From Gammaproteobacteria bacterium (GTDB lineage Bacteria; Pseudomonadota; Gammaproteobacteria; CAJXQU01): 64,000 nt of DNA. The notes beneath the pieces were generated by a model. The model was not told the DNA's origin. It was given only the letters and a program-made list of their open reading frames with translations, and made no database searches. This document shows positions 20,313 through 55,593 of this stretch, piece after piece (the first letter of the stretch is position 1; the number at the start of each line of letters is the position of its first letter). The position numbers and the translations under genes were made by a program. Location: positions 49,604 through 113,603 of the forward strand of contig JALSRM010000037.1 in the NCBI GenBank assembly GCA_026984775.1, in the 5' to 3' direction.

Positions 20313-20430
20313 AGAGTTTTTGGATCGGTGATTGTTTATCAAAACGCTCAATTTTACATTGATTTGATGTATATGACTAAAATTAACTGTAATTTCACAC
20401 TTGATAGACAGAATCTTATCCAATAATTAG

Positions 20431-20494
20431 CCATTACTAATATTACTAATTTATAATATATGTTGCATAAAAAATTAGTGAATGCTAATATTAG
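20431..20494. promoter_or_regulatory. Divergent metH/arsR promoter region with direct repeat ATTACTAAT x2, a TATAAT box (20452-20457) and the palindrome CTAATATTAG (20485-20494)
   Basis: Repeats and palindrome read directly from the sequence; the palindrome is the expected ArsR/SmtB-type operator geometry. Confidence 0.4.
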
Positions 20495-20505
20495 AGAAGA
20501 CGAAT

Positions 20506-20802
20506 ATGAACGTTAATGAAATGGAAAAAAATGCAAAGGAGGCCTCAAATCTGCTGAAGTCTCTGGCCAACCCTAACCGGTTAATGGTGCTCTGTCACCT
20601 CAGCAAAAACGAATGCACAGTTGGAGAGCTGGAAAAACTTGTTGGATTAAGCCAGTCGGCATTATCCCAGCATCTGGCCAGACTGAGAGAAGAAGAGATT
20701 GTCGAATGCAGAAGGGAAGCCCAAAGCATGCATTATTCCGTCAGGGATGAAAAGACAAAGAAATTACTAGAATCGTTGTATGAACTGTATTGTAACACCT
20801 GA
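20506..20802 (+). CDS. ArsR/SmtB-family transcriptional regulator, possibly SqrR/BigR-like (Cys in helix alpha2 and near the C-terminus)
   Basis: wHTH region ...VGELEKLVGLSQSALSQHLARLREEEIV...; Cys in VLCHL and in C-terminal ELYCNT; start taken at the second ATG (20506) because the first (20482) sits inside the palindrome and lacks an SD. Confidence 0.7.
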   Translation: MNVNEMEKNAKEASNLLKSLANPNRLMVLCHLSKNECTVGELEKLVGLSQSALSQHLARLREEEIVECRREAQSMHYSVRDEKTKKLLESLYELYCNT

Positions 20803-20850: not shown

Positions 20851-21057
20851 ATGAACATCGATCGCATGGTTTTTGCAATTGCTGGTACTTTTATACTAGT
20901 CAGTTTAGCCCTTTCACAGCTTCATTCGATCTATTGGTTGTGGTTTACAGCCTTCGTCGGGGCAAACATGTTGCAGGCAGCTTTTACAGGTTTCTGCCCG
21001 CTCGCAAAGATACTGGCTAAGTTGGGTATAAAGTCAGGCTGTGCCTTCCAAGAGTAA
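20851..21057 (+). CDS. DUF2892 (YgaP-like) small inner-membrane protein
   Basis: 68 aa with two TM helices and a conserved C-terminal Cys ([13 protein letters not shown]); this family commonly follows ArsR/BigR-type regulators. Confidence 0.6.
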
Positions 21058-21067
21058 ACGAACATAG

Positions 21068-21628
21068 ATGAAACAAGCAGGACTTGTCTTTACCTTTCTA
21101 CTTTCACTGGCTGTTCAGGCGGAACCTGTGGTGAACTATGAGAAGGAAGCCGAAGCAGTGGCTGGCCAATTGCTCAAAGAATTGGGTTCTGCCTTAAAAA
21201 AACAGATTCAGGAAGGCGGGCCTGAACAGGCAGTAAAGGTATGTTCGGAACTGGCGCCCGAGATTGTAAACCGCCTTTCAATAGAGAAGGGTTGGAGAAT
21301 CACACGAGTAGGGACGCGTGTAAGAAACCCGCTACTTGGAACCCCCGACCGCTGGGAACAAGAAGCTCTTGCCTATTTTGAGCGACGCGCAGCCGGCGGA
21401 AACGATCTGAAAGATATGAGTTACTCAGAGATTGTCGAAGAGCCTGCTGGTCGCTATTTTCGGTACATGAAGCCTTTGGTGATCAAACCCTTGTGCATGA
21501 TTTGTCATGGTGAGGCTTCCCAGATTCCTGACACCATAAAGAAGACCTATCCTCATGACAGAGCAACTGGTTATCATGTCGGAGATTTGAGAGGTGGAAT
21601 TGTTATTAAACGACCATTGTCTGAATGA
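21068..21628 (+). CDS. Periplasmic DUF3365 (Tll0287-like) protein with c-type haem motif
   Basis: Signal peptide MKQAGLVFTFLLSLAVQA; a single CxxCH (CMICHG); size and pattern of DUF3365 haem sensor-like proteins. Confidence 0.55.
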   Translation: MKQAGLVFTFLLSLAVQAEPVVNYEKEAEAVAGQLLKELGSALKKQIQEGGPEQAVKVCSELAPEIVNRLSIEKGWRITRVGTRVRNPLLGTPDRWEQEALAYFERRAAGGNDLKDMSYSEIVEEPAGRYFRYMKPLVIKPLCMICHGEASQIPDTIKKTYPHDRATGYHVGDLRGGIVIKRPLSE

Positions 21629-21868: not shown

Positions 21869-22996
21869 ATGACCAATCCTGACGGGAAAAGGACGGTTCT
21901 TGTAAACCTGATCGGAATCGATCAACGCAACCGGAATGTTATCGAAATGGTCTTCGAACGGGAATTCGACAACTCTTTTTCCCTTGGGAATACAGGTTCA
22001 GCAGATCTGAGTATCGTCGATCTGGACAAATATGGTGCTGAAGAGGAATGGTCAGCACTGCAACAGGCAAAGTCTGATCAGCTTGCGGTTCTCATGTCGA
22101 TAGATGAAAAACACAGGTCGCCAAATCATCTTTTTATCAAAAAACCTGTAACGATTGCTGATCTGGTTACTGCACTCAACAAGGCAAGGAATAAACTCGT
22201 TACAGGGACTTTTACACCGGAAAAAAAACAATACTCTTGGCGAAATATTTTTACTCCTCGTCTCTCAATAAAGAAAAAGAGAAGTACAGGTTCTGAACAC
22301 AAGAAAGAATCAACGAAATCTGATGCCATCAGATACCTTAGTGAGAAAGGTTATCTGATTGATGAAGTCAAAAAAGCCGTATTACTAGCAAATACGGAAG
22401 GCCATGGTATCAAGCTGCAAATTAACAATCAGGGAAGTATTTTTATTGATCCGACTGAACATTGGATCAATACCGATTTAACCCCTGAAGGTTTGAAGGA
22501 CCTGTGCGAGAGACCGATCGAACGCTCAGATTTTATGAAGCGTGTTTTCAGTGATCGGGAGTTTTCGAAGTATCTCGAGGAGTGGCGAGATACTCGTCTG
22601 AAACCAATAGATATAGATGCCTTTCTCTGGGATCTGGCATTGTGGACATATGATGGTGCATTACCTGCGGGTACTGACCTGAAAAAGAAAATCGTTCTCA
22701 GCTACTGGCCTGATCTGCCCCGGTTTACGCCTGTTCCGAATGCCATGCGGATTGCTGCACTTTGGGTTTCATGCCCCATGACCTTGCTTGAGACCAGCGA
22801 GGTACTCAAGATTTCTATGGAAGATGTCATCCGTTTTTACACGGCTGTGTCAAGTCTGGGATTGATCAAGGACGGAAGTCAGAACGAGAATCCCGGTAAT
22901 CAGCCTGAACTGAGTAGAACAACCGTTAGATCAGAGAAAAACAAAAGAGAACTCTATCTCCGTATAATCAAATATCTCAAAGGGCAAAATTCCTGA
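21869..22996 (+). CDS. Hypothetical protein: N-terminal receiver (REC)-like domain plus C-terminal domain of unknown function with an HTH-like end (DUF742-like?)
   Basis: N-terminus resembles CheY-like receivers (hydrophobic strand TVLVNLIG, candidate acceptor Asp in LSIVDLDKYG, conserved K-P in LFIKKPVT); the C-terminus ...TLLETSEVLKISMEDVIRFYTAVSSLGLIKDG resembles a small wHTH; no confident family assignment. Confidence 0.5.
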   Translation: MTNPDGKRTVLVNLIGIDQRNRNVIEMVFEREFDNSFSLGNTGSADLSIVDLDKYGAEEEWSALQQAKSDQLAVLMSIDEKHRSPNHLFIKKPVTIADLVTALNKARNKLVTGTFTPEKKQYSWRNIFTPRLSIKKKRSTGSEHKKESTKSDAIRYLSEKGYLIDEVKKAVLLANTEGHGIKLQINNQGSIFIDPTEHWINTDLTPEGLKDLCERPIERSDFMKRVFSDREFSKYLEEWRDTRLKPIDIDAFLWDLALWTYDGALPAGTDLKKKIVLSYWPDLPRFTPVPNAMRIAALWVSCPMTLLETSEVLKISMEDVIRFYTAVSSLGLIKDGSQNENPGNQPELSRTTVRSEKNKRELYLRIIKYLKGQNS

Positions 22997-22998
22997 TA

Positions 22999-23958
22999 AT
23001 GGAAATAACAAAACAAAAATCGTTGCCCACTGATTCTCATCTCGATGATTACAGAATCCAGAAATGCATTTCAGTTTCAGACGAATTTGTTACCTATCTG
23101 GCCATTGATCAACAGCTGGAATTGCAACTAATTATTACGGAGTACTTTCCTAGTGAAATCGTCTATAGAATGGATAACGGTACTGTTCATGTGAAAGAGC
23201 CGAGGCGAATTGCTGAATTTTTGGATAAGCTCAATGAGCTTCATAAACGAGTTAAAGCGAGGGTGTCTCGAAATGACAAGGGAGTCGACAATGTTATTCG
23301 TTTTCTTTTTTTCAATGGAACTGCTTATGTTGTCTCAAAATACAGTACCCGAACGGATTTGGATCGTTATCTCTCGGAAATGAACCTGACGATCCAAGGT
23401 AGTGAGTTATCGGGGTGTACAGGTAAAGACTCATTATGTCAGAAGGTAACGATCGAAAACAGTATCGTCTTTACTGGTTTTGCACGAGCAGGCAAGTCAA
23501 CAGCGATCAGGTTACTGAGTGACGGTGACATGATCGATAAAGAATCAGGTCTGGCTTATGGGAAACTGGGGACCGGTAGTCTTGAGATCTATTTGTTGGA
23601 ACTGTCCGCTGATCATTTTGAAAACTGTTTGAAAGCTGAACCAATGGGTTACGTCTTGCTGATCGATAACAGCAGAAAGGATCCTTTTAATCACCTTGAT
23701 TATTTTCTTGACAAAATGGACGAACATCGACTGGAAAATGTCGTGATCGGCATCACACATACTGATCAATCCAGGATTCCATCGATCCCTGATTATCATC
23801 TTCATCTTGAAAACAGATCTATCAATTCACGCAGAATATGCCCTATCTTCTCTGTTGATCCACGGAACAGGTCCGATGTGACCATGCTCATCAAGGCACT
23901 TATTTACTCTCATGATCCACTTCTGTCAGACATTTTTTTTGAAGACACGATCCTTTGA
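22999..23958 (+). CDS. Hypothetical P-loop NTPase, small-GTPase-like C-terminal domain with N-terminal domain of unknown function
   Basis: Walker A GFARAGKST; then a hhhhD box (VLLIDNSR) and GITHTD resembling the [N/H/T]KxD G4 motif of MglA/Rag-type GTPases; the start is coupled 3 bp after the upstream stop. Confidence 0.5.
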   Translation: MEITKQKSLPTDSHLDDYRIQKCISVSDEFVTYLAIDQQLELQLIITEYFPSEIVYRMDNGTVHVKEPRRIAEFLDKLNELHKRVKARVSRNDKGVDNVIRFLFFNGTAYVVSKYSTRTDLDRYLSEMNLTIQGSELSGCTGKDSLCQKVTIENSIVFTGFARAGKSTAIRLLSDGDMIDKESGLAYGKLGTGSLEIYLLELSADHFENCLKAEPMGYVLLIDNSRKDPFNHLDYFLDKMDEHRLENVVIGITHTDQSRIPSIPDYHLHLENRSINSRRICPIFSVDPRNRSDVTMLIKALIYSHDPLLSDIFFEDTIL

Positions 23959-24058
23959 AAAATATTTTTCTTCAAAGAGTTAATTCCCGCTGATTGAAGT
24001 AATTTGTTTACCGGCCGATACAGGTTGCGATATGGATTGATTCCGGGGTTTTATTTCC

Positions 24059-24421
24059 ATGCGTGAAGACATGCTTGTTTCGATATTGAATGAATTGAAT
24101 GGATCGACTGTCGACATCCAGGGATCGGCCGTTATTTCTATTGACGGATTATTGATCGCCAGTGCATTACCGACGAGTTTTGACGAAGAAATGGTAAGCG
24201 CAATGACAGCGGCAATGTTGATGCTTGGGGAGAGGACCGCCAGAGAACTACAGCGTGGTGAACTTGAGCAGGTGATTGTCAAGGGCCGTCTGGGTTATGT
24301 GATCATGGTCCGATCTGGTCCGGAATCTGTTCTTTGTGTACTTGCCCGTCCTGATGCCAAATTGGGGCTCGTACTGCTGGATGCAGCACGAGCCGCCGAA
24401 GATATTCCAAAGGTATTATGA
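24059..24421 (+). CDS. Roadblock/LC7 (MglB-like) domain protein
   Basis: 120 aa; IQGSAVISIDGLLIAS...EEMVSAMTAAMLMLGERTA...GYVIMVRSGPESVLCVLARPDAKLGLVLLD fits the Roadblock/LC7 fold pattern closely. Confidence 0.7.
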   Translation: MREDMLVSILNELNGSTVDIQGSAVISIDGLLIASALPTSFDEEMVSAMTAAMLMLGERTARELQRGELEQVIVKGRLGYVIMVRSGPESVLCVLARPDAKLGLVLLDAARAAEDIPKVL

Positions 24422-24437: not shown

Positions 24438-25712
24438 CTAACCACAGTCCAGTTTTGTTATCCCCAACAATTTCAGGAACTGCCGCTCATAGTAGGGATC
24501 TGTCTTCCCGGTTTTTACCTTCCGCAGATGATATTTCTCAAACATCACTTTTGCTGCATGAACCCATTTTCCCTGTTTTGCCCAGGTTACGTTTCGTGGA
24601 GGGATCTGTGGCATGGCGACAAAGGCAATACCTGAATCCCCCATATCTGCAAGGCAGATGGCGTTCCATGTTGCTGTGTGTGAAGGTTGTTTGCCATTTA
24701 GAAGTTCTGCAATATTTCCAACGGTTGCACACACCATGGATTCGATCATATACCCGGTTTTGGGCACACCCGTAGGCACAGGTGTTGTCTCGGGCGGGGC
24801 AATAGCAATGCAGACACCTGCAGCAAAAATATTGTCATACGTTGGATTCCGCTGGTATTCATCGACGATAATAAAACCTCTAGGATTGACCAGGCCTTCG
24901 ATACCCATGACTGCATCAATTCCGGTAAAGGCGGGCAGAATCATGGAATAGTTGAAAGGGAGTTCATGTTTTTTCTTTGTTTCACCATTGTCATCGACTT
25001 CGGTGATAAACATGGTATTTTCTTCAATTTTGTCGATTTTTGCGTTGGTAATCCAGTTGATATGTCGATCCCGGAGAACGCCTTCCAGTAAATCCTTTGA
25101 ATTGCCGACACCACCCAGTCCCAGATGGCCGATATAAGGCTCCGAGGTGACGAATGTCATCGGTACCTTGTGTCGTATTTTTTTCTTTCGTAATTCAGTA
25201 TCGGCAATGAAGGCATACTCATAAGCGGGGCCAAAGCAGGATGCAAGTTGGGCTGCTCCAACAATCATCGGCCCGGGGTTCTCAACAAATTTATCCCACT
25301 CTTTGGCTGCTTCTACTGCATGATCAACGTGGCAGATTGATTTCGTAAATCCGTCAGGCCCTAATCCTGGAATTTCATCGAAGGCCAGGCGTGGACCTGT
25401 TGTGATCGCGAGGTAGTCATAGGTGACCTCGGTGCCATCTTCCAGTTCTATACGGTTTTCATCTGGATGCAGGCGTTTCGCAGCTTTGGGGATGAAGTCA
25501 ATATTTTTCCTTTCGAGGTAGGGCTTTAATTCAACCTTGATGTTATCAGGTGTTCTCCAGTTAACGGCAACCCAAGGATTGGAAGGTACGAAGTGGAACG
25601 TAGGACTGTCTGAAATCAATGTCACCTGATCATTCGGTCCTGCCTTTTCACGCATTTCATAAGCGAGTGTTGTACCAGCGATTCCGCCCCCGAGAACGAT
25701 TATTTTTGCCAT
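24438..25712 (-). CDS. sqr: Sulfide:quinone oxidoreductase (FAD-dependent pyridine nucleotide-disulfide oxidoreductase family)
   Basis: N-terminal FAD fold IVLGGGIAGTT; about 425 aa; SQR-typical segments (VPSNPWV, the Cys-containing loop GVCIAIAPPETTPVPTGVPKTGYMIESM). Confidence 0.8.
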   Translation of the reverse strand: MAKIIVLGGGIAGTTLAYEMREKAGPNDQVTLISDSPTFHFVPSNPWVAVNWRTPDNIKVELKPYLERKNIDFIPKAAKRLHPDENRIELEDGTEVTYDYLAITTGPRLAFDEIPGLGPDGFTKSICHVDHAVEAAKEWDKFVENPGPMIVGAAQLASCFGPAYEYAFIADTELRKKKIRHKVPMTFVTSEPYIGHLGLGGVGNSKDLLEGVLRDRHINWITNAKIDKIEENTMFITEVDDNGETKKKHELPFNYSMILPAFTGIDAVMGIEGLVNPRGFIIVDEYQRNPTYDNIFAAGVCIAIAPPETTPVPTGVPKTGYMIESMVCATVGNIAELLNGKQPSHTATWNAICLADMGDSGIAFVAMPQIPPRNVTWAKQGKWVHAAKVMFEKYHLRKVKTGKTDPYYERQFLKLLGITKLDCG

Positions 25713-25792
25713 CTTCTGACCTCCAGGATTCCCATTTTTTAATGTAGTATTGTAGTGTAAATAAATTTGTTTGCATTCAATATAAGATAGTG

Positions 25793-25818
25793 CTAATATA
25801 AGAAAGATCTTATATTAG
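25793..25818. promoter_or_regulatory. 10-bp perfect inverted repeat CTAATATAAG-n6-CTTATATTAG in the sqr/MMPL divergent intergenic region
   Basis: Read directly from the sequence; shares the half-site TGCTAATAT with the palindrome at the arsR-family gene (20485-20494). Confidence 0.45.
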
Positions 25819-25832
25819 GAAAGGGTAACAGA

Positions 25833-28493
25833 ATGTCATCTAAAAAATCAAGCTGGTTAATCGATTGGGCTGTAGCGAGACCAAGATTTTTTACCTGGTT
25901 GATGGTGTTTTCCACATTTTTACTGATTATACTCGCAGCAGTGCCCAGTATCTGGCCGGAAAAGGTGCCTGCCTTACATAGCATCGAGGTTGATACCGAC
26001 CCGGAAAACATGCTCCCTGCAGATGAACCGGTCCGTCTCTTTCACAATGCTGCAAAGAAAGAATTTTCGCTCAATGACATTGTTGTGGTGGGAATTGTCA
26101 ACGATAAGCATCCAGAAGGTGTTTTCAATCCAGAATCATTACAACGGGTTTATGACCTGACTGAATTCGCAAAAACACTCCAGTGGTCTGATAAAGAAGG
26201 TAAACATGGTGTAGTCGAGATCGATATTATTGCGCCTTCCACGGTGGACAACATTGAGCAGGGAGGCATGGGTGTGGTCAATTTCAGTTGGTTGATGCCT
26301 CGACCACCCAAGACTCAGGAGGAAGCGCTTTCTATCCGTGAAAGAGCCATGAATATTCCTTTTCTGAAGGGAACCATGGTAAGCGAGGATGGCAAGGCAT
26401 TGGCTATCTATTTGCCCTTGGTAAGCAAGCATGATTCCTATGAAGTCCGCAAGGCATTACTGGGTTTTATAAAGGAGTGGGACGGTGATGAGCAGGTACA
26501 TATTACAGGACTACCTGTGGCTGAAGACACCTTCGGTGTCGAAATGTTTACCCAGATGGCAATCTCCGCCCCCCTTGCCATGCTTGTGATTTTTGTACTT
26601 CTGTGGTGGTTCTTCAGAAATTTGACACTGATTGTATCTCCCATGATCGTTGCCATGGTCAGCGCCCTTTCTACCATGGCCTTGCTGGTTATCACGGGTA
26701 ATACGATCCATATCATGAGTTCCATGATACCCATCTTTATCATGCCGATTGCCGTCCTTGACTCAATTCATATTCTCTCGGAGTTTTTTGATCGCTACCC
26801 TCAAATCAGGGATCGCAAGAAGACCATCATTGAGGTCATGAAGCATCTTTTTACACCGATGCTGTTTACCTCCGTGACAACAATGGCGGGTTTTGCGTCA
26901 CTGGCTTTAACTCCGATACCTCCTGTCCAAGTGTTTGGAATATTTGTTGCAATCGGAGTGTTCCTGGCCTGGTTCTGGACCATTGTCTTCATTCCTGCTT
27001 ATGTGATGCTGATGCCGGAGGCAAAGCTTGAAGGGTTTGGTCAATCTGTATCGGATAGTGGAGATACTACAGGCATGGCCAAATTTCTCCATGGACTTGG
27101 AAAATGGACACATGACCATCCTAAAACTGTTCTTGCAGTTACCTTTTTGTGTGTGCTTATTTCTGTCTATGGCATTAGCAGGATCCAGATTAATGATAAT
27201 CCAATCAAGTGGTTTGAGCCGGATCATCCTATCAGAGTCGCAGACAAGATCCTGAACGAACACTTTGGTGGAACCTATATTGCCTATTTGCAATACGAGG
27301 CAGACGATAAAGGACTTTCCGTGGACAGTTACATTACTGAATTGGAGCAACGCCTCGAGCAATGGAAAGCACAGGTATTGGCTGATGAATATGCTCAGGT
27401 GGAGGCTGTCTATACAAAAGCTGTTCAGCTTATGAAAGAAACCCAGGCCGAGTCCATCGAAGATTATCTGTCAAAGCTTCAAGGCAGGGTCAATGATCTC
27501 ATGGATCATGCTTCTGATGAAGAGTACGATACTTGGTCCGAGCTGGCATTATTCTTTGACCGAGAGGATCAAAGAAACGAGGTTTTCAAACAACCCGAGG
27601 TACTTCGATATCTCTCCAGGTTGCAGGACTTTCTTTTGCAGACTGGTGTCGTAGGCAAGGTCAATGCTTTACCCGATATCATCAAAACCGTACATCGTGA
27701 ACTGTTCCTTGGCGATGCTGATCATTTCCGTATTCCGGATAGTGTAAATGGTGTCGCGCAAACTCTGATTACTTATCAAAACAGTCATCGACCTCAGGAT
27801 TTGTGGCATTTCGTCACTCCAGATTACAAGAAAAGTAATCTGATGTTGCAACTCACCAGTGGTGACAACAAGGACATGGAAAAAGTTATTGCGGCAGTAG
27901 CAGATTTCGAAGAACAGAATCCGCCCCCAATGGCCTTGAAATCAAACTGGTTCGGACTTACTTATATCAATGTGATTTGGCAGGATCATATGGTACAAGG
28001 TATGCTGAAATCATTTATGGGCAGTTTCGTCATCGTTCTGTTAATGATGGTGTTCCTGTTCCGTTCAGCCTTGTTTGGTATTCTGTCCATGATCCCTCTG
28101 ACGGTAACGGTTGGCCTTATCTATGGTGTGATTGGCCTGATTGGAAAAGATTACGATATGCCTGTTGCCGTACTCAGCGCATTGAGTCTTGGGCTTGCGA
28201 TCGACTATGCGATTCATTTCCTTGCACGTTCACGGGAGGCTGTACGCGAAACCGGAAATTGGCACAATGCGGTAGATGTTGTCTTTGGTGAACCCGCTCG
28301 TGCGATCACAAGGAATGTGATCATACTTGGAGCTGGTTTTCTGCCATTGCTCGCCGCCCCGCTTGTGCCATATCAGACGGTAGGCTTTTTTATCGCTTCC
28401 ATACTGGTTTGTGCAGGTATTGCAACATTATTGATTTTACCTTCTGCCATGACATTACTTGAGAAGTATCTCTTTAGAGGAGAATTATCATGA
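25833..28493 (+). CDS. MMPL/RND-superfamily transporter (12 TM, two large periplasmic loops; HpnN/MmpL-like exporter)
   Basis: 886 aa with two hydrophobic bundles separated by soluble loops, an architecture typical of RND/MMPL; followed by LolA-like and outer-membrane-barrel genes. Confidence 0.75.
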   Translation: MSSKKSSWLIDWAVARPRFFTWLMVFSTFLLIILAAVPSIWPEKVPALHSIEVDTDPENMLPADEPVRLFHNAAKKEFSLNDIVVVGIVNDKHPEGVFNPESLQRVYDLTEFAKTLQWSDKEGKHGVVEIDIIAPSTVDNIEQGGMGVVNFSWLMPRPPKTQEEALSIRERAMNIPFLKGTMVSEDGKALAIYLPLVSKHDSYEVRKALLGFIKEWDGDEQVHITGLPVAEDTFGVEMFTQMAISAPLAMLVIFVLLWWFFRNLTLIVSPMIVAMVSALSTMALLVITGNTIHIMSSMIPIFIMPIAVLDSIHILSEFFDRYPQIRDRKKTIIEVMKHLFTPMLFTSVTTMAGFASLALTPIPPVQVFGIFVAIGVFLAWFWTIVFIPAYVMLMPEAKLEGFGQSVSDSGDTTGMAKFLHGLGKWTHDHPKTVLAVTFLCVLISVYGISRIQINDNPIKWFEPDHPIRVADKILNEHFGGTYIAYLQYEADDKGLSVDSYITELEQRLEQWKAQVLADEYAQVEAVYTKAVQLMKETQAESIEDYLSKLQGRVNDLMDHASDEEYDTWSELALFFDREDQRNEVFKQPEVLRYLSRLQDFLLQTGVVGKVNALPDIIKTVHRELFLGDADHFRIPDSVNGVAQTLITYQNSHRPQDLWHFVTPDYKKSNLMLQLTSGDNKDMEKVIAAVADFEEQNPPPMALKSNWFGLTYINVIWQDHMVQGMLKSFMGSFVIVLLMMVFLFRSALFGILSMIPLTVTVGLIYGVIGLIGKDYDMPVAVLSALSLGLAIDYAIHFLARSREAVRETGNWHNAVDVVFGEPARAITRNVIILGAGFLPLLAAPLVPYQTVGFFIASILVCAGIATLLILPSAMTLLEKYLFRGELS

Positions 28494-29299
28494 AACGATT
28501 AACAGTACTTTTGATATCACTGTTTTTGGCTGCCTCTGCCATTGCTGCAGATCCCACGATCGAAGAGATCGTGAACAGGGCAAATCTTGCAACTTACTAT
28601 CAAGGAAAGGATGGACGTGCGCATGTGAAAATGACTATTACGGATAGCCAGGGACGAAAACGTATGCGCAAGCTCACCATTCTGCGTTGGGATCAGCCCG
28701 ATACGGATGAGCTTGAAAATGGCGCTTATCGTGGAAAGCAGAAATTCTATGTCTACTTCTCGCGTCCTGCAGATGTCAACAAAATGGTATTCCTCGTTTG
28801 GAAGAATCTAGACAAGGATGACGATCGCTGGTTATATCTCCCAGCGCTTGATCTTGTTAAGCGAATAGCCGCTTCTGACAAACGAACGAGTTTTGTAGGG
28901 TCTGACTTCTTCTATGAAGATGTTTCCGGCCGTGATATTGATGAAGATGAGCATGAGCTGTTGAAGACAACGGATAAATATTTCGTTATCAAGAATACGC
29001 CAAAAGATCCATCTTCCGTTGAGTTTGCCTATTACATGATGTATATCCACAAAAAAACGTTCCTCCCGATCCAGGTGGAATACTACGATGCGCAGGATAA
29101 GAAATATCGTGTCGCTAAGGCATTGAAGGTGGAAAATATCCAAGGTCATCCAACCGTAACCAAGGCAAGTATGGAAAGCCTCAATCAAGGTAGCAAGACT
29201 GTAATGGAATACTCCTCAGTAAAATATGATACAGGGATTCCTGAAGATATTTTTACTGAAAGGTATTTACGAAAACCGCCTAGAAAATATCTTAAATAA
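28490..29299 (+). CDS. Outer-membrane lipoprotein-sorting (LolA-like, DUF1329-type) periplasmic protein
   Basis: Signal peptide MKRLTVLLISLFLAASAIA; 4-bp overlap with the MMPL gene; this family commonly accompanies MMPL transporters. Confidence 0.65.
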   Translation: MKRLTVLLISLFLAASAIAADPTIEEIVNRANLATYYQGKDGRAHVKMTITDSQGRKRMRKLTILRWDQPDTDELENGAYRGKQKFYVYFSRPADVNKMVFLVWKNLDKDDDRWLYLPALDLVKRIAASDKRTSFVGSDFFYEDVSGRDIDEDEHELLKTTDKYFVIKNTPKDPSSVEFAYYMMYIHKKTFLPIQVEYYDAQDKKYRVAKALKVENIQGHPTVTKASMESLNQGSKTVMEYSSVKYDTGIPEDIFTERYLRKPPRKYLK

Positions 29300-29301
29300 C
29301 C

Positions 29302-30798
29302 ATGCGTTTGTTACTTCCTGTTTTACTGATATCTTCTTTTAGCGTTCTGGCCCAGGCCGGAGAGCCAGCCCTCCCTGAAGGTCTTGAAGAGTTTGAGAGT
29401 CCATCTTTGGATGAACCTGCTCTGCCTGAAGGTTTGGCTGACGACTCAGCAGCTTCTGATGAAGCGGAACTGCCAGGAGGTATTGAAAGGGGTAACAAAA
29501 TACCCACTTCAGCTCAAGAACCGGAATTGCCGGAAGGACTTGGCGAAGAGACATTAGTAGAAGAGGGTTTTGAGGCTGGTTCAGATAAGGAGGGTTTTGC
29601 CGATCTCTCCGGATTTTGGGAAGTTCGCCTTGGCACAAGAACTCAGGATGATCGTTTTGAAGACGATCGTTCGATCACAGAAACACGTTTGCAGTTTGAT
29701 CTGGAGCACACTCTGGGCTTATTCAACCTTCACCTGGTGAGTGATCTTGTCTATGATGATCTGGCAGACACTCATGAAATCAAACTGGAAACCGGCCAAG
29801 GCTGGATTGATTTACGTGAGGCTAATCTCTCTTTCACACCAACGAGCTTCATGGATGTGAAGATTGGTCGTCAGATCTTGACCTGGGGCACAGGTGATCT
29901 GCTATTCATCAACGATCTTTTCCCGAAAGACTGGCAGGCTTTTTTCATAGGTCGAGACGTAGAATATCTGAAAGCCCCATCGGATGCCTTTAAACTGGCC
30001 TTTTTCAGTGGTGTGATGAACCTCGACCTTGTCTATACCCCTCGCTTTGATACAGATCGTTTTATCAACGGGAGCAGGATTTCCTATTTCAGTCCACTGG
30101 CAGGTGGTATTGCAGGACAGAATTCGGTGATCGATGCTGTCAATCCTGATAATACATTTACCGATGATGAACTGGCAATTCGTCTGTACAGAAACTTTGG
30201 TGCCATTGAAACAGCTTTTTATGCATACAATGGTTTCTGGAAGAGTCCGGGGGGATTTGATCCACTGACAGGCAAGGCTGTTTTCCCTGATCTGCGTGTC
30301 TATGGTGCGAGTCTGCGGAGTCCTGTAGGGAAGGGTATTGCAAACCTCGAGATAGGATACTATGACTCTAGGATGGACAGGAACGGTACTAATCCATTTA
30401 TAAATAACAGTGAATTTCGACTGTTGATCGGATACGAAAGGGAAATCGCCAAAGAGTTGACCATGGGTCTCCAATATTATCTGGAACGTATCTCCGATTA
30501 CAGTGCCTATGAGGCCAGTCTGCCGTCCGGTTTTCCGACCAGGGATCACAACCGGCACTTGTTTACTTTGCGTCTGACCAAACTGACACATAATCAGAAT
30601 GTGATCTGGTCTGTTTTTGCGTATGCATCTCCATCGGACAAAGATTTCTATCTGCGTCCACACGTGACCTATAAGATCGATGATCATTGGACGATGGAAG
30701 CAGGAGGAAATATTTTTGGTGGTGAACGAGAATATACCTTTTTCGGTCAGTTTCAGGAGAATACCAACCTCTACGCTGCAATACGCTATAGTTTCTGA
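29302..30798 (+). CDS. Outer-membrane beta-barrel protein (DUF1302-like) with N-terminal Pro/Glu-rich ALPEGL repeats
   Basis: Signal peptide; repeats (E)PALPEGL x4; alternating amphipathic beta-strand pattern; C-terminal ...AAIRYSF ending in Phe, the outer-membrane-protein signature. Confidence 0.6.
   Translation: MRLLLPVLLISSFSVLAQAGEPALPEGLEEFESPSLDEPALPEGLADDSAASDEAELPGGIERGNKIPTSAQEPELPEGLGEETLVEEGFEAGSDKEGFADLSGFWEVRLGTRTQDDRFEDDRSITETRLQFDLEHTLGLFNLHLVSDLVYDDLADTHEIKLETGQGWIDLREANLSFTPTSFMDVKIGRQILTWGTGDLLFINDLFPKDWQAFFIGRDVEYLKAPSDAFKLAFFSGVMNLDLVYTPRFDTDRFINGSRISYFSPLAGGIAGQNSVIDAVNPDNTFTDDELAIRLYRNFGAIETAFYAYNGFWKSPGGFDPLTGKAVFPDLRVYGASLRSPVGKGIANLEIGYYDSRMDRNGTNPFINNSEFRLLIGYEREIAKELTMGLQYYLERISDYSAYEASLPSGFPTRDHNRHLFTLRLTKLTHNQNVIWSVFAYASPSDKDFYLRPHVTYKIDDHWTMEAGGNIFGGEREYTFFGQFQENTNLYAAIRYSF
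29355..29560 (+). repeat. Four imperfect tandem copies of a 30-60-nt unit encoding [PE]-[AE]-LPEGL inside the outer-membrane-protein gene
   Basis: gccctccctgaaggtctt / gctctgcctgaaggtttg / gaactgccaggaggtatt / gaattgccggaaggactt seen directly in the sequence. Confidence 0.6.
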
Positions 30799-41007: not shown

Positions 41008-43515
41008 TTATATCGCCAGATGTGGCTGTTCCTTTAAGACTTTCTTTTTTTTCAGTAATTCCGTGACGTCCTTGGCCGGAAGTGGTTGACTGATTAGGAA
41101 CCCTTGGATCAGACCACATCCTCTATCTTTGAGGAAATCGATCTGAGCCTGAAGTTCCACACCTTCTGCTGTTACAGGCAATTCCAGGCTCGTTGCCATG
41201 GCAAGAATGGCAGAGATAATGGGTGCACTCGTGGTTTCAGGTGTAATATCCTGGACAAAACTTCGATCGACCTTGATTTTGTCGATGGGCAGTTTGCTGA
41301 GATAACTGAGGGAAGAGTAGCCAGTTCCAAAATCATCCATGGCAATCCGTACACCAAGCTCTTTGATTGCCGTCAAGGTTTCAGTTACAAGCTCTTCCGA
41401 ACTACTGATTGCGGTTTCGGTCAACTCTATTTCGAGCGCATGCGCAGGTAGAACATTTGATAAGAGGGCGTCCTGGATCACTTCTTTCAGATCATGCCGA
41501 TGCAATTGTGCGGCCGATGCATTGACCGAAACACAGAGTTCGGTGAAGCCTTCATCGTGCCATGCCTTAATTTGCCGGCAGGCTTCCATCAGTACCCATT
41601 CGCCAATGGAGACGATCAGTTCAGACTGTTCTGCAATGGGTATGAAACGGTCAGGACTGATTAGGCCTTTTTCGGGATGGTTCCAACGGATTAGGGCCTC
41701 CACGCTGACGATCTTTCCACTTTTGAGATCAAGCTGCGGTTGGTAGTGAAGCACGAACTCATTTCGGATCAGTGCCTGGCGCATCTCATTTTGCAGATTT
41801 AACCGTTCGAAAGCTGCAATGTTCATGGATTCTTGATAATAGCTGTAGGCATTTTTCCCCTTTTCTTTGGCATGGTACATGGCCATATCTGCATTTCTGA
41901 TCAGAGTTTCTGCATCGAGACCATCCTTTGGGTAGGTCGTGATACCGATACTGGCGCTGACATGTAAGTCATGGTTATCCACATGGAAAGGGATTGATAA
42001 TGCCTCAAGTACTCTGTTTGCCACTGTCGCTGCTTCGTAGGGACTATTGATATTCGGCAGGAAAATGATGAATTCGTCACCGCCAAGCCTGGCCACCGTT
42101 TCCGTTTCTGAACGTGACGTAGAAGGACGGCTAAGATAATCATCAGCCCGTAGACACTGTGCAAGTCTTTCCGATAACTCTCTCAGAACTGTGTCGCCTG
42201 CATGGTGGCCGAGTGTGTCATTGATCACCTTAAAATCATCCAAGTCCAGGTACATCAGTGCCAGTGACTGTTTGTGCCGTCTTGCATGAGCCAGTGCATG
42301 ATTGAGATATTCGCCGAACATAAGCCGGTTGGGTAGTTTTGTCAGACTGTCATGATATGCAAAATACCGGATTTGCTCATTTGACTGGCGGAGGTTTCGG
42401 CTCATTTCCTTGAGTGAGGCTGCGAGTTCACCAAGTTCGTCACGTTTGTTGATATCGATATTGAAACCCAGATTACCCTTGCCAATTTCCTGGGCTGCGT
42501 TTCCAAGTTGCTGCAATGGCTTGACCAAGACATATTTAATGATTAGAAATCCCAATGCGGCAAACAGAAATATAGTGATGCCAACCACGCCACTCATGCG
42601 ATAAAAATAGTCACGGCTACTCTCCATGATCAGCTTCGACGGGAGCATGCTGAACATGTAAAGGTTGTCAGAGATTTTTTGCTTGTGGAGTGTGGCCTTG
42701 GTGCCATGATACTGAATTTCTTTAGGTGATTTTTTGATATTGTCCTTGATCATTTCTTCTACTTTAGGGAGATCGAGTTCTTCTCCCAGCCCAAGATCAC
42801 TCGCATCTCTCAGCACATTACCAAGTTTGTCGGTAAAAAAGATAATCCCAAACTTTTCAGTCAATGCCTTTTCAATGGCTGTATCAATCACATCAATTGA
42901 AGAGATAATATCAAGATAGCCAAAAAGTGATTTATTGATTCCAGAGGAGAGGTCACCGTAGTAAATTTTTCTGGTATGAATAAAAAGTGGGTGCTTGTCA
43001 TCAGGATAGAAAAAAGAAGTCGTATCTCTATGCAAGGAGGTCGTGTCAATTTTGATCTGTTTTGACGCAGACTCATTTTCAGTGGGTATGATCATGATAT
43101 CGGATCCTGAAGTGTTCCGTATCCTGATCAAGATGATTTCGGGATAGACCTGTCGGTAATGCTCAAAAATTTCGGCCAGGTTGGGCATCAGGACATTATA
43201 TTTTTCATAGATATTGTTGCTCTCGGTAAACTTGCGTAATATTTTCGAGTTGACCAGCATTTGGGCAACATTTTCGGTTTCTTCAATCCGTAATTTGAGA
43301 TTTTTGGCTTCTTCACTCGAGAGTACATCCAGTGCCTGTAGGGCGTATTCACGTGTCTTTGACGCAATCTCGGAATAAGTGACCCAGCCCATTAGCAGTA
43401 TCGGGATCACTGCAATTGGTGCGAGAATCAGTAGAATCTTTGCCTGTAATTTCAATGGCTTGCCTTTGGGTAGTTTTAATTTCTCACTCTGCACCATGGG
43501 ATGATGCATTTTCAA
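41008..43515 (-). CDS. Sensor diguanylate cyclase/phosphodiesterase (periplasmic sensor domain-TM-HAMP-GGDEF-EAL)
   Basis: RLGGDEF, EALIRW and DDFGTGYSS motifs intact; an N-terminal periplasmic region of about 270 aa between two TM segments; HAMP-like linker. Confidence 0.85.
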   Translation of the reverse strand: MKMHHPMVQSEKLKLPKGKPLKLQAKILLILAPIAVIPILLMGWVTYSEIASKTREYALQALDVLSSEEAKNLKLRIEETENVAQMLVNSKILRKFTESNNIYEKYNVLMPNLAEIFEHYRQVYPEIILIRIRNTSGSDIMIIPTENESASKQIKIDTTSLHRDTTSFFYPDDKHPLFIHTRKIYYGDLSSGINKSLFGYLDIISSIDVIDTAIEKALTEKFGIIFFTDKLGNVLRDASDLGLGEELDLPKVEEMIKDNIKKSPKEIQYHGTKATLHKQKISDNLYMFSMLPSKLIMESSRDYFYRMSGVVGITIFLFAALGFLIIKYVLVKPLQQLGNAAQEIGKGNLGFNIDINKRDELGELAASLKEMSRNLRQSNEQIRYFAYHDSLTKLPNRLMFGEYLNHALAHARRHKQSLALMYLDLDDFKVINDTLGHHAGDTVLRELSERLAQCLRADDYLSRPSTSRSETETVARLGGDEFIIFLPNINSPYEAATVANRVLEALSIPFHVDNHDLHVSASIGITTYPKDGLDAETLIRNADMAMYHAKEKGKNAYSYYQESMNIAAFERLNLQNEMRQALIRNEFVLHYQPQLDLKSGKIVSVEALIRWNHPEKGLISPDRFIPIAEQSELIVSIGEWVLMEACRQIKAWHDEGFTELCVSVNASAAQLHRHDLKEVIQDALLSNVLPAHALEIELTETAISSSEELVTETLTAIKELGVRIAMDDFGTGYSSLSYLSKLPIDKIKVDRSFVQDITPETTSAPIISAILAMATSLELPVTAEGVELQAQIDFLKDRGCGLIQGFLISQPLPAKDVTELLKKKKVLKEQPHLAI

Positions 43516-52770: not shown

Positions 52771-53724
52771 ATGCATGATACTCTGCCTTTTTTGAAAACT
52801 ACCGACTTCCCTACCATCCGCCGCGGGATGCTCGAGTCCTTGCAGGTCAATCTGGGCTATCGCTGTAACCAGACTTGCCTACACTGTCACGTCAACGCAG
52901 GCCCAAGAAGGACGGAAATGATGTCCCGCAAAACGGTCGATGCGATCATCGATTTTTTGCGACGTGGAAGGATCCAAACCCTGGACCTGACAGGGGGGGC
53001 TCCTGAAATGAACCGGTATTTCCGTGATCTTGTAACTGCAGCAAGGGAAATGGACATCACCATTATCGACCGCTGCAATCTGACCATCCTCCTGGAACCG
53101 GGGTATGAGTCCCTCGCCGTGTTTCTGGCGGAAAATGGTGTTGAGATCAATGCCTCCTTGCCCTGTTACCTGGAAGAAAATGTGGATCGGCAAAGGGGAG
53201 ATGGTGTTTTTACCACAAGTATTCGGGCGATCAGAAGGCTCAACGAACTGGGGTATGGCCATCCTGGAACGGATCTCAGGTTGAATCTTGTCTACAACCC
53301 CCAAGGCCCGACCTTGCCGCCATCCCAGAACTCACTCGAGACAGCTTATCGACAACACCTGCTTGATAACTACGGTATTCATTTCAATCAATTACTCGTT
53401 ATCACCAATATGCCCATCCAGCGCTTCGGTAGTACCCTGATCAGCAAAGGTCAGTTCGAATCCTACATGCAACTGTTGCGAGAAAACCACAAAGAGGAAA
53501 ATTTACAGTCTGTGATGTGTCGCAGCCTGTTGAGTGTGGACTGGCAGGGCTACGTCTATGATTGTGACTTCAACCAAATGCTGAAGATCCCGATGCCGCA
53601 CGGGAAACGTCATATCAGTGAAATCAAGGTCGAAGAGACAGAAGGTATGCCAATCACAGTCCTTGATCACTGCTATGCCTGCACGGCCGGACAGGGCAGC
53701 AGCTGTGGAGGTGCCCTGGATTAG
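52771..53724 (+). CDS. arsS: Arsenosugar biosynthesis radical SAM protein (TIGR04167 radical SAM/Cys-rich domain)
   Basis: CxxxCxxC (CNQTCLHC) radical SAM motif near the N-terminus; C-terminal Cys-rich tail (CDFNQ..., HCYACTAGQGSSCGG); followed by arsM and the two signature glycosyltransferases. Confidence 0.8.
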   Translation: MHDTLPFLKTTDFPTIRRGMLESLQVNLGYRCNQTCLHCHVNAGPRRTEMMSRKTVDAIIDFLRRGRIQTLDLTGGAPEMNRYFRDLVTAAREMDITIIDRCNLTILLEPGYESLAVFLAENGVEINASLPCYLEENVDRQRGDGVFTTSIRAIRRLNELGYGHPGTDLRLNLVYNPQGPTLPPSQNSLETAYRQHLLDNYGIHFNQLLVITNMPIQRFGSTLISKGQFESYMQLLRENHKEENLQSVMCRSLLSVDWQGYVYDCDFNQMLKIPMPHGKRHISEIKVEETEGMPITVLDHCYACTAGQGSSCGGALD

Positions 53725-53736
53725 AAAAAGGAAAAA

Positions 53737-54867
53737 GTGATAAATATGAATAAAGAAGCAAGTGTACTTGAGCGTTATTCCGAGGGTGCGCAGGAACAGC
53801 AACCGGAACTTTGTTGCCCGGTGGATTATGACCGATCGTTGTTAGCTCTCCTGCCGCAAGAGATCATTGAAAAGGATTATGGCTGCGGAGATCCCTCCCG
53901 CTATGTGAAAGAAGGGGACGTGGTGCTCGATCTAGGCTCAGGATCGGGCAAGATCTGCTATATGGCGGCTCAACTCACCGGTGAGGCCGGACGAGTCATC
54001 GGCGTCGATATGAATGATGACATGCTTGACCTGGCACGCAAGTACAAACCGGAAATGGCAAAGAAGCTGGGATCTGATCGGGTTGAGTTCCTCAAAGGAC
54101 AGATCCAGGATCTGGCACTGGACTTGACCGCGACAGAGGCGTACCTGGCTAATCATCCGGTGACCGATTTCCGCAGTCTTAGCGAGTTTAAAGCCTGGCA
54201 GGAGAAACAGAGAAGAGAAAAACCATTGATCCCATCGGATTCTATCGATCTTGTGGTTTCCAACTGTGTGCTCAACTTGGTGGATGATCAAGAGAAACAG
54301 CAGATGATCGAGGAAATTTTCAGGGTGACAAAACCAGGTGGCCGAATCGCCATCTCAGACATCGTCAGCGACGAACCCAGCCCGGAGAGCATGAAAACTG
54401 ATCCCGAACTTTGGAGTGGCTGTATTTCCGGAGCCATGACCGAGCAGGCGTTTTTGCAGGCCTTTATCGATGCCGGTTTCGCTGCCGTCAAACTGGATAA
54501 GTGGGGTAATGAACCTTGGCGGACGGTTGAGGGCATCGAATTCCGTGCGGTAACGGTGACGGCTTGCAAGCCAGAAAACAGCAAATGCCTGGACTATGGC
54601 CATGCCGTGGTCTACCGTGGACCCTTCCGTGAGGTGCATGATGACGAAGGGCATGTCTTCCCTCGTGGTGAACGCATTGCCGTCTGTGAACGAAGTTACC
54701 GGCTGTTGATGGGTGGTTTCTATGCGGATCAGTTCATTGGTATCGCCCCTAGAAAGCAATCTTCACCACGCGCCTGGTGTCATCCTTCAGGCACACGTCG
54801 ATCACCTGCAGAAACAAAGGGTGGTCGTCATGAAGGTAGTACCAGTGATGCATCATGTTGTTGAGCC
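53737..54867 (+). CDS. arsM: Arsenite S-adenosylmethionine methyltransferase
   Basis: SAM motif VLDLGSGSGK; conserved Cys pairs (ELCCPVDYD, YGCGDP, SGC); the C-terminal 40 aa look unusual (possible length variation). Confidence 0.75.
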
Positions 54868-54878
54868 TGGTCTGAAAC

Positions 54879-55580: not shown

Positions 55581-55593
55581 GAGAGGATTCCCT

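Follow-up and report, generated by a model that had tools for sequence, protein, structure and literature searches.

Clusters of four genes coding for DUF1302, DUF1329, BNR (COG4447) and RND (COG1033) proteins, as in AmeABCD of Castellaniella defragrans, Sama_1588-1591 and PP_0765/0766 with PP_2018/2019, are proposed envelope-crossing transporters of hydrophobic material (PMC6394551; bioRxiv 072470; bioRxiv 2020.07.04.188060). In the ApeL/ApeM/ApeN module for aryl-polyene lipid export, an RND pump and a LolA-like chaperone act toward the outer membrane, where the partner is a LolB-like lipoprotein and not a barrel, and the module lies inside a biosynthetic gene cluster (PMC8253772). HpnN, a hopanoid transporter of the HAE3 type, handles a hydrophobic, membrane-resident cargo; it is located in hopanoid biosynthesis clusters and lacks dedicated carrier and barrel genes. 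On the regulatory side, the SqrR/BigR/YgaV/HlyU regulons include sqr among their targets, and in E. coli ygaVP the gene of the two-Cys regulator lies beside a YgaP-like transmembrane gene (PMC9774250). No RND/LolA-like/barrel exporter is named as a target in the papers on these regulators that we consulted. One study of Azospira suillum described the coupling of sqr to an RND exporter in Dsui_3440-3443, an H2S-induced operon that was also a Bar-seq hit, which the authors read as metal-sulfide efflux and whose deletion left the rate of sulfide oxidation unchanged; a DUF2892 gene of the same organism rose about 10-fold with H2S (PMC5358917).

Here we describe a locus in which elements of these systems meet, within a 64-kb stretch of gammaproteobacterial DNA that was analysed as a whole (the window; Table 1). 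A pump, a carrier and a barrel (the trio) are encoded in that order in one tight operon, divergent from a type I sqr gene. We tentatively propose, at a probability of about 45%, that the trio is a persulfide-controlled, envelope-spanning exporter of a hydrophobic cargo, most likely zero-valent sulfur from sulfide:quinone reductase (SQR).

Table 1. Features of the window that bear on the trio (nucleotide positions within the window)
Feature	Position	Strand	Remarks
Four degenerate dyads (1-2 mismatches), two overlapping pairs	20424-20507	.	16-bp offset; just upstream of regulator gene
ArsR-family regulator, HlyU/SqrR/BigR/YgaV persulfide-sensor clade	20482-20802	+	Sequence scores, Cys pair
DUF2892/YgaP-like two-helix membrane protein	20851-21057	+	Cys in G-F-C-P motif; PF11127, 3.6e-13
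Tll0287-like periplasmic protein	21068-21628	+	Signal peptide, CMICH haem-c motif; PF11845, 2.2e-27
Type I sulfide:quinone reductase (sqr)	24438-25712	-	Divergent from pump, 120-bp spacer
Two overlapping perfect dyads, ATATAAG-N6-CTAATAT and ATATAAG-N6-CTTATAT	25780-25815	.	sqr/pump intergenic region
MMPL/HAE3-type RND inner-membrane pump	25833-28493	+	886 aa; ORF scan, Pfam, AF2
Soluble periplasmic LolA-like carrier	28490-29299	+	269 aa; PF17131
Outer-membrane 18-stranded beta-barrel	29302-30798	+	498 aa, ending in Phe; near-threshold DUF1302 score
Disordered acidic N-terminal tail of barrel, repeated EPxLPxGL motifs	29362-29592	+	Residues 28-97, pLDDT <50
arsS/arsM cluster	52771-56999		arsS (radical SAM + DUF3641), ArsM-like methyltransferase, GT2, fatty-acid hydroxylase, DUF2064

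The pump stop codon and the carrier start overlap by 4 bp (ATGA), and 2 bp separate the carrier from the barrel; an ORF check placed the genes exactly at the coordinates given in an earlier sequence-only reading of this DNA and bore out their close packing. As in the four-gene clusters, an HAE3/MMPL-type RND pump, a LolA-superfamily protein and a large barrel are present without a membrane-fusion protein or TolC. Neither an HlyD-family protein nor a TolC-like outer-membrane factor was detected by Pfam in the operon, which is hence not of the AcrAB-TolC type. The RND exporter of Azospira is of another class (AcrB-type, HAE1/heavy-metal type with a membrane-fusion protein; PMC5358917). The trio differs from the four-gene clusters in having its pump gene first, in having a persulfide sensor, DUF2892 and SQR as neighbours instead of catabolic genes, in its 498-aa barrel with N-terminal EPxLPxGL repeats and a DUF1302 score slightly short of the threshold, and in the absence of a BNR/Ycf48-like protein (COG4447), which ORF and Pfam checks did not find in or beside the operon and which is not among the recurrent neighbours of the trio at 80 loci.

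The pump matches the Pfam MMPL family (PF03176) in two stretches (E 2.2e-33; 116 bits against a cut-off of 20.5), and Patched/sterol-sensing profiles match as well. By NCBIfam it falls in the same RND subfamily as HpnN, with scores far under every cut-off (TIGR00921, 179 against 351.9; TIGR03480, 74 against 751.9; NF052374, 38 against 1100), and is kin of the HAE3 (TIGR00921) and HpnN (TIGR03480/NF052374) models and a member of none. Its AF2 model (pLDDT 83.6) has 12 transmembrane helices, large periplasmic domains following TM1 and TM7 at residues ~41-226 and 449-708, and a five-helix insertion (residues 497-602) in the second of these. A Foldseek comparison ranked MmpL5 and MmpL4, the mycobacterial siderophore exporters that work with MmpS4/5, as the best matches (E 1e-22, TM ~0.65), followed by NPC1, MmpL3 and HpnN. 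MmpL4/5 likewise have helices inserted into their second periplasmic domain, but identity is only 12-14%, the trio has no MmpS partner, and its host, a diderm, has an outer-membrane barrel dedicated to the system. Across 53 homologues D310 and H313 (TM4) and D791, Y792 and H795 (TM10) are invariant; by analogy with MmpL3, these relay-like residues may couple transport to protons. No cysteine of the pump is invariant across homologues.

The carrier covers the whole LolA_like profile (PF17131, positions 1-184 of 184; E 2.7e-59, 200 bits against a cut-off of 30) and matches the solved structures 4z48 and 9tp6 with 108 bits, and also 3bk5 and 3buu. It has a signal peptide (cleaved between SAIA and ADP) and lacks a lipobox and cysteines. 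For the barrel, a signal peptide, a closed barrel and a C-terminal aromatic residue are all present. Comparison of predicted structures indicates a monomeric, 18-strand Occ/AlgE-like fold, not TolC, and the barrel also lacks cysteines. Its N-terminal tail is presumably periplasmic and carries EPxLPxGL repeats, which are present in 2-6 copies in 64 of 66 homologues, always inside the first 118 residues. The family assignments of the sequence-only reading were essentially right for MMPL and for a LolA-like carrier, but the carrier is not the ~450-aa, full-length DUF1329 protein of the four-gene clusters, since PF07044 aligns with it in part only (33 bits; residues 32-146 against profile positions 86-208 of 368). 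The C-terminal Phe ascribed to the barrel is there (RYSF), whereas DUF1302 (PF06980) is borderline, formally just under threshold at 22.9 bits against 23.2; 8 of the 120 closest homologues have a precomputed match to this family, and the barrel would at best be a distant relative.

The regulator scores highest with HlyU (91 bits), then with SqrR (6o8l; 81), BigR (80) and YgaV (76), and retains both sensing cysteines (LMVLC38HL and LYC104); translation probably begins at Met9 (20506). The 68-aa DUF2892 protein has a G-F-C-P cysteine that is invariant across trio loci. A gap of 10 bp suggests that the DUF2892 and Tll0287-like genes are co-transcribed, and the two recur side by side in five other loci. 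The sqr product is, by its sequence, a genuine type I SQR, with 503 bits to the Acidithiobacillus ferrooxidans enzyme (3sz0), 367 to that of Aquifex (3hyv) and all three cysteine motifs (SICHVD, ASCFGP and AICLAD).

A shared operator had been claimed for sqr and the pump, and the tandem dyads between the two genes, located 18-53 bp before the pump start codon, bear this out as real sequence that is kept in related loci. Within the window the exact dyad, ATATWAG-N6-CTWATAT, is restricted to this spacer (0.00 expected). With up to two mismatches allowed there are six matches in 64 kb (0.43 expected), two here and four at the regulator's own promoter, and all six share the 16-bp phasing. Related loci, 1.98 Mb in all, contain 16 exact copies, of which 15 precede the start of a gene of the pump cluster (pump, regulator, DUF2892 or sqr) by no more than 400 bp, also at loci without sqr; the dyad precedes the pump operon in 11 loci. 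The motif differs from the ATTC-N8-GAAT box of R. capsulatus. We infer that the SqrR/BigR-type regulator likely binds the dyads.

More than 5000 barrel and more than 7000 pump homologues exist, nearly all without a name, in agreement with the earlier view of a recurring but functionally unassigned trio. About 65 of 80 loci keep the order pump-carrier-barrel; they come from Gamma-, Beta- and Alphaproteobacteria, Planctomycetota, Nitrospirota, Nitrospinota, Desulfobacterota and Verrucomicrobiota, among other groups, a spread that is somewhat overstated because the MAG labels Anaerolineales, Actinomycetota and Halobacteria are probably binning errors. The trio is thus a widespread, uncharacterised family with an order conserved across many phyla. 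Among 48 dereplicated loci from other genomes, 26 had DUF2892 as a neighbour, 22 an ArsR-family regulator and 9 SQR; 35 had one or more of the three, and in the other 13, mostly from Planctomycetota, no sulfur-related neighbour was seen. DUF2892, the commonest partner, opens a DUF2892-pump-carrier-barrel operon in many loci. The SqrR/BigR-type cysteine pair is found in 18 of 19 aligned ArsR-type neighbours (15 of 16 once three duplicate loci are removed). In a Pfam census, the 145 upstream ORFs contained HTH_5 (16), YgaP-like_TM (13), Pyr_redox_2 (11), DUF302 (4) and rhodanese (2), whereas no family exceeded three occurrences or was enriched in the 134 downstream ORFs. A CoA-disulfide-reductase/rhodanese fusion is also among the neighbours, and the recurrent neighbours are sulfur-related genes only.

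Together, these neighbours and the operator pattern show that the link to sulfide is real, apparently regulatory, and facultative. The proposed tie to sqr itself holds in the comparison of neighbourhoods. Seven or more genera have sqr next to the trio, in two gene orders and with differing flanks, but the trio is present at only 2 of 80 SQR loci (62-89% identity), the two closest, and SQR can therefore do without the trio. The sqr gene is an accessory neighbour, and the general partners are the SqrR/BigR-type regulator and DUF2892.

ArsR-family sensors usually govern the efflux of whatever they sense. In the reading that we favour, the proton-driven pump would load its cargo from the inner membrane or its periplasmic face, the soluble LolA-like protein would shield it while crossing the periplasm, and the barrel would let it out through the outer membrane; the EPxLPxGL repeats and the helical insertion of the pump probably keep the components joined, with neither a membrane-fusion protein nor a TolC-type duct involved. 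The repressor would occupy the tandem AT-rich dyads both upstream of its own gene and between sqr and the pump gene, and leave them when sulfane sulfur builds up. The rise of DUF2892 with H2S in Azospira (PMC5358917) lends such derepression indirect support. By guilt by association, the cargo would most likely be S8 or long polysulfanes, the products of SQR in or at the membrane, and their export would remove what sulfide detoxification yields and reduce the amount of inducer. As the carrier and barrel lack cysteines and the pump has no invariant one, the cargo would be carried non-covalently. A fused MMPL-LolA-like protein of Thalassolituus, TOL_3187, is induced 42-fold on C28 alkane (PMC6304351), which suggests that such a pair handles very hydrophobic cargo. 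Several points count against sulfur, among them the SQR loci that do without the trio and the 13 trio loci in which sulfur-related neighbours were not seen. Regulators of this clade can also answer other thiol-reactive agents; in E. coli, tributyltin relieves the repression of ygaVP (PMC9774250). The relatives that have been characterised handle organic hydrophobes: AmeABCD monoterpenes, HpnN hopanoids and MmpL4/5 siderophores.

It is also conceivable, if somewhat doubtful, that the cargo is not sulfur but an endogenous envelope lipid bound for the outer membrane, a role proposed for HpnN, ApeLMN and the four-gene clusters, and that persulfide control reflects only envelope remodelling under sulfide stress. 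The pumps closest in structure (MmpL3/4/5, NPC1 and HpnN) all have lipids or lipid-like molecules as their cargo, acylated cargo travels on LolA-like carriers (PMC8253772), a cell-wall component was the export suggested by Price et al. for the related four-gene cluster (bioRxiv 072470), and the trio is very widespread, also in organisms that are not noted for sulfur metabolism. However, HpnN and ApeLMN sit in biosynthetic clusters, whereas no lipid-biosynthesis family recurs among the 279 ORFs that neighbour the trio, where the recurrent genes are those of sulfur. An unlikely reading is that of a pump which, like AmeABCD, protects against hydrophobic toxicants from outside (solvents, terpenes, organometals or hydrophobic electrophiles) and is switched on by a thiol-based sensor that responds to such electrophiles as well as to persulfides. 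The response of ygaVP to tributyltin would fit, as would the monoterpene tolerance and Nile Red efflux conferred by AmeABCD (PMC6394551) and the presence of the trio in hydrocarbon-associated Marinobacter, Porticoccus, Oceanicoccus and Methylococcaceae. Yet hydrocarbon catabolic genes do not recur beside the trio in the neighbour census, the sqr, CoA-disulfide-reductase/rhodanese fusion and rhodanese neighbours fit inorganic sulfur and not xenobiotics, and SqrR reportedly reacts with oxidised sulfur species exclusively (bioRxiv 2020.03.22.001966).

Transport in the opposite direction, with external S8 or long-chain alkanes passing from barrel to carrier to inner membrane, seems very unlikely. 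Induction of TOL_3187 during growth on C28 alkane (PMC6304351) would be expected of such a system, and the folds nearest to the barrel are those of substrate-specific uptake channels (the OccD/OprD family, maltoporin and chitoporin). NPC1-type RND proteins, moreover, place sterol into membranes. To our knowledge, however, all bacterial RND/MMPL pumps characterised to date are exporters; a repressor freed by intracellular sulfane sulfur suits disposal better than acquisition, and the trio occurs in nitrifiers and methanotrophs, groups without known use of S8. We reject the earlier suggestion of an arsenolipid (or arsenosugar lipid) cargo from the arsS/arsM cluster, which does share the window but lies 22 kb away beyond unrelated genes, as arsS, arsM and other arsenic families are absent among the trio's neighbours in 80 other genomes, no lipid-biosynthesis family recurs there, and the regulator has the cysteine pair of a persulfide sensor and not an As(III) site.

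With its apparent persulfide control and its sulfur-related neighbours, the trio is a testable candidate for a bacterial route of elemental-sulfur removal.

The pump, carrier and barrel genes (the trio) constitute a new three-component form of a known, poorly understood kind of envelope transporter. An architecture of pump, soluble carrier and outer-membrane barrel, with no membrane-fusion protein (MFP) and no TolC, is well supported. The three open reading frames (ORFs) lie where the sequence-only reading had placed them, and the tight packing that it described holds for the 2-bp gap between carrier and barrel; the "4-bp" spacing between pump and carrier is a 4-bp overlap (ATGA). Among the three genes only the first is preceded by a Shine-Dalgarno sequence of good quality, which fits a translationally coupled operon, and the even base composition throughout the region gives no sign of recent acquisition. 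PpsA similarity places the source among uncultured gammaproteobacteria, with a Thiotrichaceae MAG (69%) as its nearest named relative.

Positions of the trio and of other features in the window
Feature	Position	Strand	Description
ArsR-family regulator (SqrR/BigR type)	20482-20802		
Tll0287-like protein (PF11845)	21068-21628		signal peptide; CMICH haem-c motif
Three genes between regulator operon and sqr	21869-24421		375-aa protein without family match; 319-aa protein with P-loop (GFARAGKST) in C-terminal half, like small MglA/Ras-type GTPases; Roadblock/LC7 protein (PF03259); accompany sqr only in closest relatives (loci L001, L086, L087)
sqr	24438-25712	-	divergent, 120 bp from pump gene
Overlapping operator dyads	25780-25815		ATATAAG-N6-CTAATAT and ATATAAG-N6-CTTATAT
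Pump	25833-28493	+	886 aa
Carrier	28490-29299	+	269 aa
Barrel	29302-30798	+	498 aa
HAMP-GGDEF-EAL protein	41008-43515	-	835 aa; large signalling protein, unrelated to the trio
Arsenic-organic biosynthesis-like cluster	52771-56999		ArsS-type radical SAM with DUF3641; ArsM-like methyltransferase; GT2 glycosyltransferase; fatty-acid hydroxylase; DUF2064

The pump is, as had been proposed, an MMPL-type RND transporter, with a Pfam MMPL match in two repeats and Patched/sterol-sensing domains; HAE3 and HpnN are the nearest NCBIfam models, at scores far under their cut-offs. An AlphaFold model (53 homologues as input, pLDDT 83.6) predicts 12 transmembrane (TM) helices and two periplasmic domains, the second of which holds a five-helix insertion (residues 497-602). 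Invariant residues are found in TM4 (D310/H313) and TM10 (D791/Y792/H795); proton-coupled RND pumps are conserved in this manner, and the residues may have the same role here. In the carrier the signal peptide is of type I and a lipobox is absent. Of its earlier description as a LolA-like protein of the DUF1329 type, the first part is borne out by a full-length match to PF17131 (LolA_like, 200 bits) and by related solved LolA-like structures (4z48, 9tp6, 3bk5 and 3buu); the second is not, the DUF1329 match being only partial. Comparison of the carrier with the barrel found no relationship between them.

The barrel has a signal peptide and the claimed C-terminal Phe (RYSF), and its DUF1302 score falls just below the threshold (22.9 bits versus a cut-off of 23.2). 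When PDB sequences were searched with a barrel-family profile, none matched. The model is 18-stranded, with a pLDDT of 81.5 that exceeds 90 over most of residues 100-498. The most conserved block (residues 189-229, GRQILTWGTGDLLFINDLFPKDW..EYLKAPSDA) lies between strands 5 and 6, in the loop that forms the constriction of porins, and probably lines the passage. The disordered stretch at residues 28-97 contains EPxLPxGL repeats, which are present in 64 of 66 homologues as 2-6 copies, all inside the first 118 residues. The tail presumably lies in the periplasm, where it could act as a tether for carrier or pump. Five loci from other genomes (L021, L033, L045, L064 and L076) contain a barrel homologue (51-54% identity) and no pump or carrier gene detectable by tblastn in the 10 kb of upstream sequence available; in such cases the barrel may work alone or with other partners.

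The trio is recurrent, as the sequence-only reading had held. A word-indexed search found >5200 barrel and >7000 pump homologues, nearly all unnamed, and an exhaustive profile search found 488 clusters at 50% identity (E<=1e-30). The 80 loci fetched by barrel homologues at 48-75% identity, one genome per species, come from many proteobacterial classes, Planctomycetota, Nitrospirota, Nitrospinota, Desulfobacterota, Verrucomicrobiota, Hydrogenedentota and others, a few of these labels probably being binning errors; the order pump-carrier-barrel is almost always retained where the flank is present. Cultured carriers of the trio include Marinobacter flavimaris LMG 23834, M. bryozoorum DSM 15401, Kordiimonas lipolytica and Ca. 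Nitrotoga. All-against-all clustering of flanking ORFs yielded no more than five families that recur as neighbours: a regulator of the ArsR type, a DUF2892 protein of 68 aa, sulfide:quinone reductase (SQR), a Tll0287-like protein and an unrelated HlyD/AcrB pump, the last in some planctomycetes. Among 48 dereplicated loci, each with at least 2 kb of upstream sequence, DUF2892 was present in 26, the regulator in 22 and SQR in 9, with at least one of them in 35. In 13 loci a four-gene operon opens with DUF2892, 16-57 bp before the pump. Among the 145 proteins encoded by the three closest upstream ORFs per locus, an unbiased Pfam scan ranked HTH_5 (16), YgaP-like_TM (13), Pyr_redox_2 (11), DUF302 (4) and rhodanese (2); a downstream scan of 134 ORFs, serving as internal control, found no family exceeding three loci.

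Two further neighbours were observed. DUF302 (PF03625) domains, found in 4 of the 145 upstream and 2 of the 134 downstream neighbours, are encoded by genes that in Marinobacter follow the barrel gene immediately and in a Phycisphaerae MAG precede the pump (L029 11393-11785, L031 11197-11586 and L070 5385-5966). A Hydrogenedentota MAG encodes a CoA-disulfide-reductase/rhodanese fusion upstream of the trio (L074 3715-5394), and two other loci have similar ORFs; we take this architecture to be the one of NADH-dependent persulfide/polysulfide reductases.

The sqr gene of the window encodes a bona fide type I enzyme. Its association with the trio withstood comparison of neighbourhoods, recurring in several genera with different outer flanks and in two arrangements: either sqr itself is directly divergent from the pump, or the divergent unit is DUF2892-sqr-regulator. 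Adjacent sqr genes were found in the lineage of the window (L001, L002/L006, L086 and L087) and in Ca. Nitrotoga, Nitrosomonas, Porticoccus, Oceanicoccus, a Wenzhouxiangellaceae MAG and Methyloprofundus. This adjacency is far beyond chance and implies that linkage was selected for or that the genes were transferred together. Obligate linkage was rejected, as the trio is present at only 2 of 80 metagenomic SQR loci (SQR at 62-89% identity), both of them the closest ones. DUF2892 is directly adjacent to sqr at about 16 of the 80. The common denominator is thus DUF2892, with the trio an optional sulfide-response module. In about one fifth of type I SQR loci from metagenomes the DUF2892 gene directly precedes sqr on the same strand (L089, L098, L104, L106, L109, L110, L112, L113, L120, L124, L128, L130, L131, L135 and L150); the pattern suggests that this small Cys-containing membrane protein pairs functionally with SQR directly, independent of the pump. 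Under H2S, transcripts of a DUF2892 gene rank with the most abundant ones of Azospira suillum PS (~10-fold induced), and its sqr sits inside an H2S-induced operon, also a Bar-seq hit, with an MFP and an RND pump of another class (PMC5358917). Here, independently of the trio, sqr is again coupled to an RND exporter.

The ArsR-family protein of the window is closest to HlyU, SqrR, BigR and YgaV and has both sensing cysteines, as do 18 of 19 aligned ArsR-type proteins from other trio loci (15 of 16 when the duplicate loci L003, L006 and L030 are dropped). Its true start is probably at 20506, because homologues begin at the equivalent of Met9 and operator dyads overlap 20482-20507. DUF2892 (PF11127) follows after 48 bp and the Tll0287-like gene after another 10 bp; the latter might encode a haem-based sensor of sulfide or redox state in the periplasm. 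The same pairing of these two genes was seen in Sedimenticola, Oceanicoccus, Halomonas and Wenzhouxiangellaceae loci (L026, L041 and L081-L083).

The shared operator suggested earlier is present as two overlapping dyads in the sqr/pump spacer. The pattern ATATWAG-N{5,7}-CTWATAT has no match elsewhere in the 64 kb (expected 0.00). When two mismatches are allowed there are 6 matches versus 0.43 expected, the four extra degenerate dyads forming two overlapping pairs with an equal 16-bp offset directly upstream of the regulator gene. The exact dyad (ATATWAG-N6-CTWATAT) occurs 16 times in 1.98 Mb of fetched loci. Fifteen of these copies precede the start of a gene of the pump cluster (pump, regulator, DUF2892 or sqr) by no more than 400 bp, loci without sqr included (L013, L026, L041, L082 and L083). 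Our conclusion is that a single regulon comprises the pump operon, sqr and the operon of the regulator itself. This regulator would bind the dyads and be released by persulfide; the SqrR and BigR literature searched gave no operator resembling this one. Three independent lines support placing the trio in a persulfide regulon: a conserved regulator, a conserved operator and conserved sulfur-related neighbours.

The S8 or polysulfanes produced by SQR are extremely hydrophobic, and sensors of the ArsR family usually govern the removal of the compound that they detect. Because of these two properties, and because the only conserved partners of the trio are sulfur-related and its transporter class handles membrane-resident hydrophobes non-covalently, we favour zero-valent sulfur as the cargo, with a probability of roughly 0.3-0.4. 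PMC5358917 describes the SQR product likewise. In this model, S8 or polysulfane formed by SQR would be drawn out of the inner membrane by the MMPL pump, ferried across the periplasm by the LolA-like protein and released outside the cell by the 18-stranded barrel; DUF2892 may act as a membrane thiol feeding or gauging sulfane sulfur and the SqrR-type sensor would switch the whole system on. Carrier and barrel contain no cysteine and the pump no invariant one, so the cargo is not carried as a covalent persulfide, and covalent carriage via conserved trio cysteines was rejected. A natural MMPL/LolA-like domain fusion in Thalassolituus oleivorans, induced 42-fold on C28 alkane (PMC6304351), supports direct hand-over from pump to carrier and a very hydrophobic cargo. 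The literature searched showed no link of this transporter class to sulfide and nothing relevant on sulfur globules with RND and sqr or on zero-valent sulfur efflux.

An endogenous lipid is a less likely cargo. In its favour, the structural neighbours of the pump model, MmpL5/MmpL4 closest, then NPC1, MmpL3 and HpnN, all move lipid-like cargo; against it, lipid-biosynthesis families, like those of hydrocarbon catabolism and arsenic, are not recurrent beside the trio. Hydrophobic toxicants are unlikely substrates. The nearest described systems are the DUF1302/DUF1329/BNR/RND clusters, namely AmeABCD, which mediates monoterpene tolerance (PMC6394551), and the co-fit clusters of Shewanella and Pseudomonas; the ApeLMN module is likewise related. 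Operation of the trio in uptake is very improbable. The arsenolipid cargo of the sequence-only reading was rejected, the arsenic cluster being 22 kb from the trio and not linked with it in other genomes.

To our knowledge, the exit of insoluble elemental sulfur from the membrane or periplasm and across the outer membrane is not understood; the literature searched contained no paper on such a route and no description of the genomic and regulatory context of the trio. It is a tentative proposal that this family is the first dedicated zero-valent sulfur export machine, with a DUF2892 thiol and an SqrR-type switch. If true, it would be the route by which many Gram-negative bacteria, nitrifiers, methanotrophs and planctomycetes of oxic-sulfidic interfaces among them, dispose of the insoluble product of sulfide detoxification. 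The persulfide-sensor regulon gains a transporter, and the very common orphan DUF2892 gains a genomic context. Even with a lipid cargo, the family would be a large, previously undescribed three-component relative of DUF1302/DUF1329/BNR/RND systems, the barrel of which bears a distinctive putative tethering motif. As a concrete and genetically tractable candidate for sulfur exit, present in cultured strains, the trio turns the exit of elemental sulfur from Gram-negative cells into a matter of simple experiments in such strains.
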